Below are positions 45,929 through 64,000 of a stretch of 64,000 nucleotides of DNA, in pieces. Origin of the DNA: Eledone cirrhosa (Eukaryota); contig OZ024760.1 in the NCBI GenBank assembly GCA_964016885.1, positions 32,984,001-33,048,000 on the forward strand, written 5' to 3'. The position numbers were made by a program, and so were the translations under genes. The notes under the pieces were generated by a model. The model searched no databases, was not told the origin of the DNA, and was given only the letters and a program-made list of their open reading frames with translations. Position 1 is the first letter of the stretch; each line of letters starts with the position of its first letter.

Positions 45929-46129
45929 ATATACATATATATATATATATAATAATAATATTAATTATAGTTATGTAAATACTATATACAACTATAAACA
46001 GGAAAGGTCAGTAATTTATTACTACCTTATTATCAGTAAGAAAAATAGCTCAATGTAAATACATCAGATGTTTTACAGAGCAGGAATATAAATTACACAA
46101 TAATCAAATCTATGTTCAAACCATTTTAT

Positions 46130-46176
46130 TGCTGACAATCGTTTCTTCCTAACTATCGTTTGGAATCATCGGAACA
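46130..46176 (-). ncRNA. Minimal hammerhead-like motif (U4C core variant), inverted-arm copy
   Basis: Minus strand: TGTT CCGATGA TTCC..GGAA GAAAC GATT GTC AGCA, followed by AATAAA. Confidence 0.65.
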
Positions 46177-47278
46177 CTAGCAACGTTTGGACATATAATT
46201 AACCTCCTATTTAACTGAACAATCATATAGATACATGGATATTAATGTTGTCAACAACAGTTTCATATTTACAACGTGGAATGGATGCAACATAGATTTC
46301 AAGAGAATTGTACAATAATTAAAATTAAAAATTAAAAATTAAAAAGGCACAGAGTGGAATGCATGCAACAGAGATTAGTATAACAATTAAAGAGGCATTA
46401 AGGTAGAAAGTTACTTGTAAAACGAGGACACTAGCAGTACATATGCAAGTGTATAGAGAGTGCAAATGCAATAGGCATATACAAGAAGGAAACAAGCAAT
46501 GGTACTAGGCATATATAATTTCTGCGAGACAAAGGTATCACATAAAACAACATATGTTTACAAGCAGGCAAACCTGTTTTTGTATTAAAATTATGGGTTT
46601 ATGGTGGATGTAGTGTGACGGTTTCTGTAATGTTCAAATGTGTATGTGCTGAGAGTATCAATGTTATTGCTATCTTTTCCATCACATTGGCTATGTTTTA
46701 TTTTAGTGAATGTTTTTAATCAGTCACAGCCATGTATTGTACACCGGTCCTATTATATTGCTACCCGGGGTTCGTGTTGTTGTGGAGCGATTCTTCTAAC
46801 GGTTTAATTTCCGGAAGTGAGTTTGATCTATATTAAGGGGAGCTAATACGAAAGGGGAGGTAACTAGCGATTACGTTGTAAATGAAATTAGAAAAATGTA
46901 AAGTTGTTTACAGCTCCAATTAGTTAAATTCTTTGTGTTGATATACATTATATTGTGTTATAAGTGAATCCCTTTTATATAATTGTTTCTACTTTAGGCA
47001 CAAGGCCAACAATTACCCAGTGCATTACTGGTACTTCATTTTATCGACCCCGTAAGGATGAAAGGCAAAGTCAACCTCGGCAGGATATTTGTTTATATTT
47101 AATCCTATTTGTTTATATTTAATTTTAAATACAATCTATTTTCCTATAAAACATTAAAGGTCTCATTATATTGTTATCTATTCATTACTTAATAAAGTAT
47201 AAGTAAGCTATAGAAAAAATGTATAGTTTTTTACAGGTCTAATTAGTTAAATCTCTTGTGCTATTAATATACATTATA

Positions 47279-49655: not shown

Positions 49656-50966
49656 ATATAACGATGTCAGATCTGAATTTCTCACTACCATTAACGCTTC
49701 ACCTCTAGGTCTTATCAGCATGTAAGTACCCCCTCAGCATCACACTCTATCATCAGCTCATCACTCTACCTAACTCCTTTTTATCTCAAACTTTATACTA
49801 TACAATAACTATTAGGAATAAACATAAAGCTAACACCATTTAATATAACCACTTATATCATATTTAGTGATGGATAAATAATAATATGATGAGACACTTA
49901 ATGTAGTATAGGAAAATAAATTATATTTATAATTAAATATATAAATTAATAGCATTATATATATGGGATTCACTTATAACATAATATAATGTATATTAAT
50001 AGCACAAGAGATTTAACTAATTGGACCTGTAAACAACTATACATTTTTTCTATAGCTTACTTATACTTTATTAAGTAATGAATAGATAACAATATAATGA
50101 GACCTTTAATGTTTTAGAGGAAAATAGATTATATTTAAAATTAAATATAAACAAATAGCATTATATAAAAGGGATTCACTTATAACACAATATAATGTAT
50201 ATCAACACAAAGAATTTAACTAATTGGAGCTGTAAACAACTTTACATTTTTCTAATTTCATTTACAACGTAATCGCTAGTTACCTCCCCTTTCGTATTAG
50301 CTCCCCTTAATATAGATCAAACTCACTTCCGGAAATTAAACCGTTAGAAGAATCGCTCCACAACAACACGAACCCCGGGTAGCAATATAATAGGACCGGT
50401 GTACAATACATGGCTGTGACTGATTAAAAACATTCACTAAAATAAAACATAGCCAATGTGATGGAAAAGATAGCAATAACATTGATACTCTCAGCACATA
50501 CACATTTGAACATTACAGAAACCGTCACACTACATCCACCATAAACCCATAATTTTAATACAAAAACAGGTTTGCCTGCTTGTAAACATATGTTGTTTTA
50601 TGTGATACCTTTGTCTCGCAGAAATTATATATGCCTAGTACCATTGCTTGTTTCCTTCCTGTATATGCCTATTGCATTTGCACTCTCTATACACTTGCAT
50701 ATGTACTGCTAGTGTCCTCGTTTTACAAGTAACTTTCTACCTTAATGCCTCTTTAATTGTTATACTAATCTCTGTTGCATGCATTCCACTCTGTGCCTTT
50801 TTAATTTTTAATTTTTAATTTTAATTATTGTACAATTCTCTTGAAATCTATGTTGCATCCATTCCACGTTGTAAATATGAAACTGTTGTTGACAACATTA
50901 ATATCCATGTATCTATATGATTGTTCAGTTAAATAGGAGGTTAATTATATGTCCAAACGTTGCTAG

Positions 50967-51013
50967 TGTTCCGATGATTCCAAACGATAGTTAGGAAGAA
51001 ACGATTGTCAGCA
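50967..51013 (+). ncRNA. Minimal hammerhead-like motif (U4C core variant) near the 3' end of Penelope 1
   Basis: TGTT CCGATGA TTCCaaacgatagttaGGAA GAAAC GATT GTC AGCA, about 45 nt from the element end. Confidence 0.65.
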
Positions 51014-51101
51014 ATAAAATGGTTTGAACATAGATTTGATTATTGTGTAATTTATATATGTATATATATTTATAAAGGTATATATAAAGGCATATATTGA
51101 G

Positions 51102-55914: not shown

Positions 55915-56005
<91 letters not shown>

Positions 56006-57003
56006 GTAGGAGGTGAGTTTTATTGTAGTACAATAAAGCAATGCAGATATCGGATAAGAAGCACTCTACAGTTTGTAGGACTGGAGTATACATAATATAT
56101 AAGATCAAAAGATATAAATAGACGTACAGATTTGTTTTCTATCTGCTTGCATAAATTCCATAAGACTTTTCACAAAGTATACAGCTAATATTCAATTCTT
56201 TATCAATTTAGAATCTTTTCTCAAAGGCACATATACATACACTTCTTTTAAAATATACCCATCTTCCTACCTTACTTCAAAGGGTATTATACACTCTATA
56301 ATACTTGTTTACTCATTACCCTCACTCTATCTTCACCTTGTAAAATCCTTCGTAACATATACATTTGTTTTGACGCCAGAGTATTCATCCTTAATTTATT
56401 ATTTTTTCTCCCCATCATCTAACTCATTCTTAATACATATTAACTCTTTCTTCGCACATATTATCAATTCCTTCAATATACAAACCTTAACTTCACATTA
56501 TTTTTCTCAAATCCTTCAATACACAAACCTTAATAATTTTTTCTCTTCGTTAATTTTCAAATTTCCATAATACTTGTAAACATACACACAATTTTTTGAC
56601 GTTAGAATATTCGTCCGCAATCCATTATTCTTTTTTCTCTCTATCATCAAACTTTTTAATCTCAATATATATTAACTCCCTCTCCTTCTTCGTACATATT
56701 TTTCCCTTCGTTAATGTTCAAATTCTTTTAATTTATACATTATCTTCCAACGGTTTTCAACCTCTCTATGTAAAACAATATATCTTTTCTCAGTTATAAA
56801 AACTATCTCTTTCTCTCTATCACCCATCTCTCCCTCTCCACCTTCACTCTCATCTCCTCCCCTTTTTTTCATCCTTTCCACCCCCCTCTCGAAATAAAAT
56901 ATTTTTCCCAATATCACACATCAATCTAAAATTACTTTTCATATGTTGATTTAAAACTGCACTATCCACAAGTGTTTTTTAGCCTTCATATCATGTCCTC
57001 CTG

Positions 57004-57073
57004 TCTTATCTGATGAAAACACAAATATTATTATTGCATGATGATGTTTGTTTTTGAAATGCGCATAATAAAA
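57004..57073 (+). ncRNA. Type I minimal hammerhead in the 5' pLTR
   Basis: TCTTAT CTGATGA [long AU-rich stem II] GAAAT GCGC ATA ATAAAA; palindromic ATGCGCAT stem III. Confidence 0.88.
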
Positions 57074-57281
57074 TACATGGAACTCCTTTAACCATCTTTT
57101 GATCTTATATATTATGTATACTCCAGTCCTACAAACTGTAGAATGCTTCTTATCCGATATCTGCATTGCTTTATTGTACTACAATAAAACTCACCTCCTA
57201 CATTAACTTGCTCCTTAACGATTGAGCGCTTACTCTCATATTGGATACCTTCTGATGGTCTTTTACCTCTTCTTCTACAAC

Positions 57282-59668
57282 ATGGATTATTACAACATAA
57301 CCAATTCAACTAAAGACATTCCTATACCTGGTAAATCTGAATTCACCAAACTTCTAATTGAAAAAACTGACTCCTTCGTAAGAAGACTTAGATGGATAGC
57401 CTATTTCTATGACCAGCGCCTAAAAGGGAACTTCTATACCAAAGAACATAACTTCCTCGATCATCTATTTAATTCTAGAAGAAATCCTCCTTCCAACAAA
57501 AATCTAGTGCAATTCGAGGAAGAGTTAACTAAAATAATAAAAAATCTTAAATTCAAGAGATACCCTTACAAAGGACAAGAGCACCTTGTAAATCTCAAGA
57601 ACACAATTTCTAACCTAAATTCCTCAAAAAATGTTTTAGTCCACTCTGACAAAACCAATAACTTATATGGTATTTCCAAGGATAATTATAACAACCTTAT
57701 TCTAAAGGAACTTAGGAAAAAGTATCGTAAAACCAACCATGAAAATTTAGAATACATAAACCTTGAAGCCTCTGAGATTATGTCAAAACTTGGCATTGAA
57801 AAAAAGACCGAACCATTCCTCCCAAGAACTCCGAGGATAAATCTCAAGGATCACAAAAACAATTTTCGCACTGAACTACCTGTTAGATTAATCGCCCCCT
57901 CTAAATCTGATCTGGGGGTTGTTAGTAAAGCCATCTTGGATAGAATTATCCCACAGGTTAGTTCTAATTGCTCTTCTTTGAACCTAAATTTATGGTTTGG
58001 TACTTCTGAAGTGATTGGCTGGTTCAACAAATATAAAAACAATAATAAAAACAAACTAAAATTTATTCAATTTGATATTGCCAGCTACTATTCCTCCATT
58101 TCGCCTTCACTTCTCAATAATGCTCTATCTTTCGCACTTAAATATTCTGACATCACCACAGATGAACTTCACATCACCCTCACCGCACGTAAAACCATCC
58201 TAGAGTTCAACAACGAATATTGGACCAGAGCCGATACCTCTAACAACTTCGACATCACAATGGGAGCATTCGATTCATCCCAATTGACTGATTTAATTGG
58301 TATCTTTATTTTGAACTCTTTGAGTCGGAAAATTCCTCAACTTCGCGGTGGAATTTATCGTGACGATGGACTCTTTACTATCTTAAATTGCAATATAGTT
58401 AACCTTAATATTATTAAGAACAATATACGTAATTTCTTTAACCAACATAAGCTAAAAATTGAATTTGATAACAGTATCAAACTAGCTAATTTCTTGGATG
58501 TATCTCTTAATCTTGACACTGGCCTATATTACCCTTACCATAAAAACAATGAGAACCCAAATTATGTTAACTTTAAATCTAACCATCCTACCAATATCAA
58601 GAATGCTATAGTTAGTAATATTGGAAAAAGAATATCTAACATATCTTCTAATAAAAACATCTTTGATGCTAACGCCAATAATAACGCACTTTCTAAAGCC
58701 GGCTATCCTGATAAAATCAAATATAGTAAAGAAACAAATTCTAGAAAAACTTACAGTAGAATAATTAATCATGATCATTCCAATAACTTTAATAAAAGAT
58801 CTAGATACAAAAACATAATCTGGTATAATGCTCCTTTCTCCATCTCTATTAATAACAATATTCCTAAATTATTCTTTAGTGCCTTAAATAAATGCTTCCC
58901 TCCCTCACATATCTATAGTAAAATATTTAACAAACACACCATAAAATTTTCTTATTCTACATCCTCCAATATTTCCAACATTATCTCTAAACACAACAAT
59001 AAAATACTAAATACTAAATCTCTTCCTTCCAACACTGAATTTCATAATAACAGTAATAGTACTCCCGACGTCATTGTAAACCCTAGGCTAATTTCTGTAA
59101 ACCCAAATACAACGTCAAACACAACTTCGTTAAATGTTCATAATCCAACTCTAAATCAAGAAACTATTATTCCTATCGCAAACAACTTCTCCAATCCAAT
59201 TCCTTCTATAGATAACACTAGGTCACTCATTAATAATCTCTCTAATTGCAACTGCCCTATTAAAAATAAATGTCCTCTCAACAAACATTGTCTTGATAAA
59301 AACTTAATTTATGAATGTAAAGTTATAACTAGCACCGATTCCTTCACCTATTTTGGCTCCACTTCCACCTCTTTTAAAGCTCGTCTCTATAATCATCATT
59401 CATCTTTTAAATACAAACTTAAAAGAACCAACACGGCTCTCTCAGAACTCATATGGTCCTTGAAAGACAAAAACATTAAATATACCATCTTTTGGAAGAA
59501 GGTTTCTTCTGCTACTTGAACAGCTCTCTATCTAAAATCTGTAATCTCTGCCTAAATGAAAAATTTACCATTATCTCTAATCTAGATTCTATAATAAATA
59601 GACGTACAGATTTGTTTTCTATCTGCTTGCATAAATTCCATAAGACTTTTCACAAAGTATACAGCTAA
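57282..59668 (+). CDS. Penelope-like RT plus GIY-YIG endonuclease protein (possibly Naiad-type), with one frameshift near 59517
   Basis: ATG at 57282 (MDYYNITNSTKDIPIP). RT motifs QFDIASYYSSI, ITMG and IYRDDGL; CNC..CPL..CL; LIY...YFGST. The C-terminus [23 protein letters not shown] continues in a shifted frame to TAA at 59668. Confidence 0.9.
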
Positions 59669-60484
59669 TATTCAATTCTTTATCAATTTAGAATCTTTTC
59701 TCAAAGGCACATATACATACACTTCTTTTAAAATATACCCATCTTCCTACCTTACTTCAAAGGGTATTATACACTCTATAATACTTGTTTACTCATTACC
59801 CTCACTCTATCTTCACCTTGTAAAATCCTTCGTAACATATACATTTGTTTTGACGCCAGAGTATTCATCCTTAATTTATTATTTTTTCTCCCCATCATCT
59901 AACTCATTCTTAATACATATTAACTCTTTCTTCGCACATATTATCAATTCCTTCAATATACAAACCTTAACTTCACATTATTTTTCTCAAATTCTTCAAT
60001 ACACAAACCTTAATAATTTTTTCTCTTCGTTAATTTTCAAATTTCCATAATACTTGTAAACATACACACACTTTTTTGACGTTAGAATATTCGTCCGCAA
60101 TCCATTATTCTTTTTTCTCTCTATCATCAAACTTTTTAATCTCAATACATATTAACTCCCTCTCCTTCTTCGTACATATTTTTCCCTTCGTTAATTTTCA
60201 AATTCTTTTAATTTATACATTATCTTCCAACGGTTTTCTACCTCTCTATGTAAAACAATATATCTTTTCTCAGTTATAAAAACTATCTCTTTCTCTCTAT
60301 CACCCATCTCTCCCTCTCCACCTTCACTCTCATCTCCTCCCCTTTTTTCATCCTTTCCACCCCCCCCTCTCTAAATAAAATATTTTTCCCAATATCACAC
60401 ATCAATCTAAAATTACTTTTCATATGTTGATTTAAAACTGCACTATCCACAAGTGTTTTTTAGCCTTCATATCATGTCCTCCTG

Positions 60485-60552
60485 TTTTATCTGATGAAAA
60501 CAAATATTATTATTGCATGATGATGTTTGTTTTTGAAATGTGCATAATAAAA
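60485..60552 (+). ncRNA. Type I minimal hammerhead in the 3' pLTR
   Basis: TTTTAT CTGATGA ... GAAAT GTGC ATA ATAAAA. Confidence 0.85.
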
Positions 60553-60584
60553 TACATGGAACTCCTTTAACCATCTTTTGATCT

Positions 60585-60623
<39 letters not shown>

Positions 60624-61232: not shown

Positions 61233-61499
61233 AACCTTATAGGCACCTGTTTAACGTGTGTTGTGTTGAGGCAAATAACTATGTGTATACTCTGGTAATG
61301 TATCTTACATTGCCCATTGAGTGCGCTGAGATACAACCGGTACTGGCATTGATAAATATGCTGGGTCCGTCAACCCTTATTATATATATATTTCTTTAGA
61401 ACTGCTGGACTAACAACCTAGCAGCTCCATCAAGCACTGATGGTGATTATCGCTAAATATTGATATTGATTTGGTTATCAATATTAATATTATTGGGCA

Positions 61500-61622
61500 C
61501 CCACTGAAGAATTATAAGTGCCCACTTGAATAAGTATCTGTTGATCTTATACAAGCTTCTACATAAATTGGTATAATTTCATCCAACTTGTAGAAATCTT
61601 ATAGTGAAACGAGTCGTCTGGG
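61500..61622 (+). ncRNA. Type I hammerhead with about 95-nt stem II (copy 1)
   Basis: CCCA CTGAAGA ATTATAAG...CTTATAGT GAAAC GAGTC GTC TGGG. Confidence 0.9.
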
Positions 61623-62194
61623 AAGAGATATATTTGATATATCTCATATGAAATGATACAGCCAATTTTCCACAAAATACAATTAGTTAGCACCCCGAAC
61701 GTTTAATTAGGAATATACTCAGGTATTTCCTAATGTTTGTTGAGTGAGTTAGAATTTGGCCGGAGTATCGCTATTAGCTTTCTCCGATTATGTATTTATA
61801 TATTTACTCTTAGAACAACAGATATGAATTTTCCCGATATAAGGTATGACTCTCTTTGTTTATTTTTTATATGAATACTGATTGTTTGTTCTTGTATCTC
61901 ATTCTGTTATTTTGCCCGAGAAAATATCTATGTATGTCATCAAGCGATGCGCACATATGGTTTTCTTTTCATATCCAATTGAGGTCTAGCACGTGGCTTG
62001 AATTCTTTTCAGAATTCATTGACCTGCGCATGTATTGTTTTTTGGCGGTAGTCTCCTTTCTCCTATTTTCGAGACAGTGTGAGATTTTCTTTAGAACTGC
62101 TGGACTAACAACCTAGCATCTCCCTCAAGCACTGATGGTGATTATCGCTAAATATTGATGTTGATTTGGTTATCAATATTAATATTATTGGGCA

Positions 62195-62317
62195 CCCACT
62201 GAAGAATTATAAGAGCCCACTTGAATAAGTATCTGTTGATCTTATACAAGCTTCTACATAAATTGGTATAATTTCACCCAACTTGTAGAAATCTTATAAT
62301 GAAACGAGTCGTCTGGG
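62195..62317 (+). ncRNA. Type I hammerhead with about 95-nt stem II (copy 2)
   Basis: CCCA CTGAAGA ATTATAAG...CTTATAAT GAAAC GAGTC GTC TGGG. Confidence 0.9.
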
Positions 62318-62509
62318 AAGAGATATATTTGATATATCTCATATGAAATGATACAGCCAATTTTCCACACAATACAATTAGTTAGCACCCCGAACGTTTA
62401 ATTAGGAATATACTCAGGTATTTCCTAATGTTTGTTGAGTGAGTTGGAATTTGGCTGGAGTATCGCTATTAGCTTTCTCCGATTATGTATTTATATATAT
62501 ATATATTCA

Positions 62510-62565
<56 letters not shown>

Positions 62566-63769: not shown

Positions 63770-63824
<55 letters not shown>

Positions 63825-63949
63825 TAATAATAAATTTCAAGACTAAAATCCAAAGAGGGCTCGATAAGGATAAATATATATCAAATATATAAGAACCGTA
63901 GAGCAAATATTTATTAAAATAACAGATTAAAGTTTAAGCAAAGAATCGC

Positions 63950-64000
63950 TGCTTTCACCCTTAACGGGATCTTCTGAAGATCCCGTTAAGGGTGAAAGCA
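63950..64000 (+). repeat. Perfect palindrome centred inside a hammerhead-like core, cut off by the window edge
   Basis: TGCTTTCACCCTTAACGGGATCTTC T GAAGATCCCGTTAAGGGTGAAAGCA; the + strand reads CTGAAGA tCCCgttaaGGGt GAAA. Confidence 0.8.

Follow-up and report, generated by a model that had tools for sequence, protein, structure and literature searches.

A non-coding insertion with two hammerhead motifs lies in the 64,000-nt stretch of Eledone cirrhosa DNA analysed here (contig OZ024760.1, positions 32,984,001–33,048,000; hereafter the window, from whose first letter positions are counted), and it raises the question of what kind of element this is, how its RNA would be processed and which protein would copy it into the genome. 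In the accessible text of the papers cited here and below, to which all our comparisons refer, retrozymes form RNA circles, which Penelope-like elements (PLEs) are proposed to mobilise (PMC7229834, PMC7761336), what the PLE hammerhead does is called unclear (PMC8557442), an antisense template has been proposed for PLEs (PMC3846280), and non-LTR retrozymes and non-autonomous PLEs have been proposed to be one thing (10.64898/2026.07.22.740005). We suggest, with a probability of about 0.55, that the element is a dispersed non-autonomous PLE, or non-LTR retrozyme, whose RNA is cut by its hammerheads to a 695-nt monomer, probably circularised, and reverse-transcribed by a borrowed PLE protein. An earlier, sequence-only reading had called it a candidate retrozyme, which holds insofar as the element is a multicopy non-coding hammerhead tandem, but non-autonomous PLE with a PLE-type hammerhead is the better description.

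Structure of the insertion

The insertion is 1,111 nt long and consists of one complete 695-nt unit (61391–62085, u1–u695) followed by u1–u416 again (62086–62501), with TA tracts on both sides; all features of the element given here lie on the + strand. As the sequence-only reading had described, the two copies, 1.6 units in all, align at period 695: 61391–61803 recurs at 62086–62498 with 97.8% identity over 413 nt, and when the TA run is counted the overlap becomes 416 nt at 97.6%. On the left the insertion begins at a 5′ truncation point, next to a (TA)n target remnant (61380–61390), and the partial second unit stops at the fixed 3′ end of the family and runs into the right (TA)n target tract (62502–62562). 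No target-site duplication beyond the TA repeats was discernible on inspection of both flanks. At the fixed 3′ end lie a hairpin and a TA-like tail (62456–62501, with an internal twin at 61761–61806), which, by comparison with PMC11167929, may be the internal start site of reverse transcription.

The absence of a recognisable ORF was borne out, as the longest Met ORF in the element has 81 codons and tblastn of 77 PLE proteins against it gave no match below E 0.09. In particular, no ORF with RT and GIY-YIG lies between the repeats, where the non-coding 282-nt spacer (61804–62085) matches none of the 77 PLE proteins; this spacer is ∼70% alike in a sister family, with many 1-nt indels. It contains a splice-donor-like AG|GTATGA (61842–61849, junction at 61844), which is kept in the element's family (family A) and in the sister family (family B). 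Introns at the 5′ side occur in PLEs, and among the top indel sites of family copies we found no recurrent precise deletions that would indicate spliced copies.

We also considered the 413-bp repeats as LTRs and rejected this, since their right end is the fixed 3′ end of the family and their left end is an arbitrary truncation point. Because the 3′ end is fixed and 5′ ends vary, the repeats are the overlap within a 5′-truncated insertion of 1.6 units. The element resembles plant LTR retrozymes only superficially, in its ∼400-bp direct repeats and a monomer within 600–1000 nt; type III hammerheads, fixed LTR ends and a 4-bp target duplication are reported there (PMC4918200; PMC7229834, PMC7761336), whereas family A has none of these, with a type I hammerhead, a variable left end and flanks of TA only.

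Form and conservation of the hammerhead

Each copy reads CCCA-CUGAAGA-AUUAUAAG...CUUAUA(G/A)U-GAAA-CGAGUCGUC/UGGG, and GUC ends at 61618 and 62313, exactly the two sites, 695 nt apart, at which cleavage had been predicted. The motif is a type I hammerhead with helix I CCCA/UGGG, a helix II of 8–9 bp closed by a 77–79-nt insert and helix III ACG(A)/(U)CGU. In hammerhead 1 (61500–61622, predicted cut after 61618) helix I is formed by 61500–61503 and 61619–61622, the core CUGAAGA lies at 61504–61510, helix II is formed by 61511–61518 and 61598–61605, GAAA follows at 61606–61609 and helix III takes up 61609–61617; the helix II insert (61519–61597, 79 nt) is predicted to fold into two hairpins, which show compensatory changes in the sister family. 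Hammerhead 2 (62195–62317, predicted cut after 62313) is nearer its active fold. The earlier description of both hammerheads as intact is correct for the core, which is present in both copies, but copy 1 carries a private T at 61519, where the family has A in 128 of 141 copies; this T strengthens a rival hairpin, and, compared with the best fold, the hammerhead fold is predicted to be less stable by 6.1 kcal/mol in copy 1 vs 1.5 kcal/mol in copy 2. A second CUGAUGG at 61437 was rejected as a core, the matching helices being absent.

A descriptor comprising the core, helix II of ≥8, helix III of ≥3 and helix I of ≥4 bp was satisfied by 0 of 20,000 random 695-mers with the same dinucleotide make-up, and Rfam at gathering threshold reported no family match within the 64-kb window. 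The hammerhead is atypical in its two-hairpin helix II insert, the lack of G10.1–C11.1 and its short palindromic helix III, and family A thus displays a form that Rfam overlooks. The G10.1–C11.1 pair is also missing from the hammerheads of resident Hydra PLEs. N7 in the hammerhead core is a free position, and it is where shared core variants are found among 141 full copies (A in 125, T in 15); in the same copies helix II alternates between U-G and U-A, and position 10.1 is A or U. Loop III has two regular lengths in 170 of 176 unit junctions, 9 nt in 109 and 13 nt, with a palindromic GACGUC, in 61.

The predicted cut-to-cut monomer (61619–62313, 695 nt) folds better than shuffled sequences, with z of −4.3 as a line and −4.2 as a circle; the circular fold of the family B monomer gave −4.9, each circle being compared with 25 shuffles. 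Pairing was further analysed in 21 chosen copies from families A and B, where it holds in 93.7% of cells vs 34–46% when the strands are slid, and 8 of the 37 named pairs are altered on both strands (one pair in helix I, one in helix II and 6 in the insert hairpins). Most of these double changes reflect the single split between A and B and 89 of 500 shuffles equalled their count; thus the hammerhead appears to be under selection, on co-variation support that is good but not many-fold.

Family copies in the genome

A first look at the 3.0-Gb genome gave 3,480 candidates for the unit, of which the best 40 were scored. Exact genome-wide matches of three short motifs numbered 237, 362 and 650 (the last for one 21-mer) and those of reversed controls 0, so that the copy number is at least several hundred; the element is one among hundreds to thousands of dispersed non-coding copies. 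A local duplication, which had been named as an alternative, does not account for it, since the spacer by itself gave 1,527 first-look candidates and all of the best 40, which were scored, matched at 92–100%.

Insertion ends were read in two overlapping samples, the first 100 listed places, in genome order, of a motif at u255–273 (sample 1, 94 insertions) and, for a motif at u376–396, all 87 places listed on contig C1 (sample 2, 79 insertions). The 3′ end falls within u403–422 in 88/94 and 76/79 insertions, respectively, and runs into (TA)n; it is 188 nt beyond the predicted cut, and 5′ truncation is variable. Hence, of the expectation that other copies would share the spacer and have permuted ends, the spacer is found and free permutation is not, the 3′ end being fixed. 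From the pooled 150 insertions 11 were removed (4 non-collinear, 6 whose 3′ end lay elsewhere and one segmental duplicate); of the remaining 139, 97 extend past the first cut site, 31 are longer than one unit and 9 include two cut sites, and 138 are no longer than the insertion at our locus. The longest insertion among the places listed has 2.8 units (L207). Copies that reach 5′ of u1 always enter spacer and the previous unit, never an ORF, in the copies examined, which speaks against the other alternative named earlier, a piece of a coding PLE.

Sister family B (3,085 candidates; 30 loci read, L346–L375, e.g. L369:910–1632) has a 723-nt unit, 70% alike, with the same fixed 3′ end and without ORF. 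In its hammerhead the triplet is GUU, helix II has U-U at its base, and helix III is a perfect palindrome. Contigs assembled from reads (three runs, one sample) contained many family copies; neither molecule ends nor an informative joint were found in them. Occasional copies carry inverted 5′ pieces (L018, L170). A jump from u229 to u632, at or near the predicted cut, was seen at L169, and at L361 (∼1808–1822) a family A copy whose start lies near the cut directly adjoins a family B copy at the latter's 3′ end, possibly after a template switch.

Three footprints in the ends and sequences of copies

The first footprint is an accumulation of 5′ ends at the predicted cut. The interval u226–250 holds the 5′ end in 32 of 141 passes, where other 25-nt intervals have a median of 0.057 and TA-rich control intervals 17 of 197 (P = 5e-4). 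Starts exactly at u229 were observed in 4 of 139 insertions, with 0.3 expected, and a strict pattern applied genome-wide found 5 copies starting there. In sample 2 the flanking 30-nt bins hold 1/70 and 1/48 ends; therefore the accumulation does not come from a general excess of short copies. Most of these ends are found at a TA run with potential for microhomology, 5–17 nt inward of the cut. Since the stretch is TA-rich and also supplies the 3′ strand of helix I, part of the accumulation can be put down to microhomology or a structural stall; u366–390 on the second pass is equally high (7/28). That copying stops at the cut of the sense strand speaks for a sense template in family A. Independent copies at L098, L180 and L198 start 6–7 nt upstream of the cut, inside the long-allele loop III.

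The second footprint is concordance between copies within an insertion. For 50 adjacent-copy pairs, which include score-ranked loci, 19 of 535 comparisons at family-polymorphic sites were discordant, where 156 are expected for random monomers, and the background difference rate was 459/9,810 (4.7%). Concordance holds on both sides of the cut (6/190 and 13/345 discordant) over 16 allele sets. Unit-to-unit differences are symmetric (241 vs 255), and recurrent differences have shared orientation in 105 cases and opposite in 100, so that no inherited unit-to-unit difference is seen. Three loci (L030, L088, L132) look like mixtures of two monomers. Such concordance would also be expected from young homogeneous tandem sources.

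The third footprint is increased termination on the second pass: u255–374 terminates 7/76 first passes vs 14/28 second passes (P = 2e-5; post hoc). Per 100 nt, termination is 0.21 in one half of the first turn and 0.25 in the other, against 0.50 over the 160 nt past one unit (P = 0.004); the rate rises from 0.22 to 0.50 after one unit length. The best change point is 710 nt, with 300–350 nt within 2 log-likelihood units, and more frequent late termination could come from finite linear sources as well. PLE reverse transcriptases are not known to have RNase H.

Resident PLEs as the likely source of the mobilising protein

A PLE lies 800 bp upstream of the insertion (56114–60599, + strand, with an inverted piece at 56002–56113). 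It has 1,009-bp pseudo-LTRs, 98.6% alike, and its own hammerheads at ∼57010 and ∼60491, and its frame ends at 766 codons, where relatives have 821. A Pfam search of this ORF gave no match; its RWI, DKT and CxCx5C motifs and its TA target, with an end in (TA)n, fit the Hydra clade, for which RWK, DKT, CxCX5C and a TA target are given (PMC8557442). Candidates for its family number 26,597, and 821-codon frames are frequent in the 150 that were scored; other Hydra-like families, with 714 and 719 codons, also occur. Hydra-clade PLEs here are abundant, young and TA-targeting. The (TA)n target is common to the 3′ ends of family A and this neighbour, and the mobilising protein is likely to come from a Hydra-clade PLE. 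Compared at the DNA level with the window's PLE and with 70 loci of Hydra families (60 + 10), the unit showed no likeness to any of them, and the adjacency thus only reflects the same target.

Either a template switch or a nested insertion may account for the direct joint at position 1776 of L164 (oriented), where u238–349 meets the 3′ portion of an ORF from the 714-codon Hydra family. Broken frame pieces at L372:2566–3316 resemble, by eye, a PLE of another clade.

Proposed mechanism and competing explanations

The copy ends give indirect support to cleavage and re-reading of one monomer. In our proposed mechanism, a two-hammerhead source locus, such as 61391–62501, would be transcribed on the + strand, and cleavage by the hammerheads would follow u228 and, helix III being short and palindromic, would probably take place in a dimer or with the aid of a protein. 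A protein from a PLE, in all likelihood a Hydra-clade one, would nick (TA)n and start cDNA internally, 188 nt past the cut. On unligated RNA the reverse transcriptase would run off at the cut, in about one quarter of passes; on circular RNA it would cross the junction, go round and slow on meeting its own cDNA after one turn. The cDNA end would then be joined to the target through TA microhomology, and the insertion at our locus would be a 1.6-turn product. That the copies are in this way a fossil record of PLE RT starting internally on a hammerhead-made circle, running off cut RNA and stalling after a full turn is a tentative reading, to which we give somewhat less than even odds.

The same copies could also descend from uncut or partly cut linear tandem transcripts of loci with 1.3–3 units, the hammerhead being a rare cutter or a passenger and tandems being regenerated occasionally. 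As 138 of the 139 insertions do not exceed 1,111 nt, a locus like 61391–62501 could template them, a finite source length would likewise raise late termination, and unprocessed RNA was the main Anolis Poseidon substrate in vitro (PMC11167929); we nevertheless hold such transcripts to be an unlikely template, because units are homogenised across the 16 allele sets, sibling insertions have no common oriented unit differences, no array longer than that at L207 is found among the places listed that could serve as a long master, and 5′ ends pile up at the cut. If cleavage does occur, a circle may be dispensable where the RT, having reached the 5′ end of a cleaved linear monomer, jumps precisely to that molecule's 3′ end, the two ends being held together by helix I or a protein. 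Run-off at the cut, allele concordance and the slower second pass are explained equally well by this jump, and jumps at or near the cut are seen at L169 and L361; almost all junctions are exact, however, and untemplated jumps would be expected to leave scars, which makes it a rather doubtful explanation.

It is very improbable that a coding PLE, represented by truncated copies, supplies the unit as its pseudo-LTR, or that the unit spread as DNA in the manner of a satellite or helitron. PLE pseudo-LTRs do bear such hammerheads (PMC4209133), the window's Hydra PLE has pseudo-LTRs of 1 kb and the genome searches scored only the best 40 candidates; against this, extension 5′ of u1 leads, in the copies examined, to spacer and the next unit and never to an ORF, in family B as well, and the combination of a constant 3′ end and variable 5′ truncation is as expected for reverse transcription and not for spread as DNA.

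Comparison with known systems

Under our preferred reading the element would work like a non-LTR retrozyme. With non-LTR retrozymes the locus shares, at the sequence level, a type I hammerhead in each unit, head-to-tail order, two hammerheads, and a non-coding, multicopy and dispersed character; with non-autonomous PLEs it shares, structurally, the partial tandem, the fixed 3′ end, 5′ truncation and a microsatellite target like that of resident PLEs. Metazoan non-LTR retrozymes (PMC7229834; 10.64898/2026.07.22.740005) are, like family A, non-coding AT-rich tandems with a type I hammerhead per unit, a well-folded monomer and co-occurrence with PLEs, and they are described as lacking LTR, PBS and PPT, family A likewise lacking LTRs. 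The 695-nt monomer is longer than the 170–400 nt of tested invertebrate and axolotl circles (PMC7229834) and falls within the 51–972 bp range of the preprint. In contrast to these retrozymes, which form arrays, family A occurs mostly as dispersed insertions of less than one to 1.6 units with a fixed 3′ end, has a PLE-type hammerhead with a large helix II insert, and its circle is a putative one.

Hydra-clade PLEs (PMC8557442) and Anolis Poseidon (PMC11167929) share with family A the partial tandem, 5′ truncation, the (TA)n target, a hammerhead upstream of the internal RT start, which for family A is predicted, and occasional inverted 5′ pieces. Unlike Hydra PLEs, family A has no ORF, and it has no sequence in common with the Hydra ends examined. 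In Anolis Poseidon, RT initiation is internal, downstream of a hammerhead that is dispensable in vitro, and RNA ends did not map to the cut (PMC11167929), where family A has its accumulation of 5′ ends. The minimal hammerheads of PLEs (PMC4209133) have, as in family A, a helix I of 4 bp, a helix II of 8–9 bp and a small palindromic helix III, and family A differs from them in lacking G10.1–C11.1, in the 79-nt two-hairpin insert closing helix II and in its 9- and 13-nt loop III alleles. With their short helix I, long helix II and palindromic helix III, PLE hammerheads are thought to act as dimers (PMC4209133); 8 of 9 Xenopus dimers failed to cleave (10.64898/2026.07.22.740005).

No prior report of such footprints was found in freely accessible papers and the main text of preprints. 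The retrozyme class is known already; what sets the element apart is the form of the hammerhead and the three footprints, though supplements of the cited papers may list similar hammerheads. For the central step of this class, the family supplies hundreds of natural end products in which three footprints can be measured, and they give exact predictions for an existing in vitro PLE assay: a start at u416, a stop at u229 and a slowdown after 695 nt. If the proposed mechanism is true, the function of the PLE hammerhead would be to make a circle that regenerates the pseudo-LTR tandem, the template would be the sense strand, and the hammerhead would contain a conserved two-hairpin domain in helix II.

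Other repeats in the window and at related loci

The window also contains a satellite with a 20-bp unit in ∼1,959 copies (1–38999) and an 898-bp inverted repeat, 99.9% alike (46086–46983 and 50160–51057), with nested inverted pieces between its arms. A short repeat at 63822–64000, ending in a perfect inverted repeat (∼63950–64000), recurs beside TA tracts in many loci. The flanks of many loci (e.g. L099, L100, L070, L342) carry at least five further unrelated hammerhead-like motifs within other TA-associated repeats.
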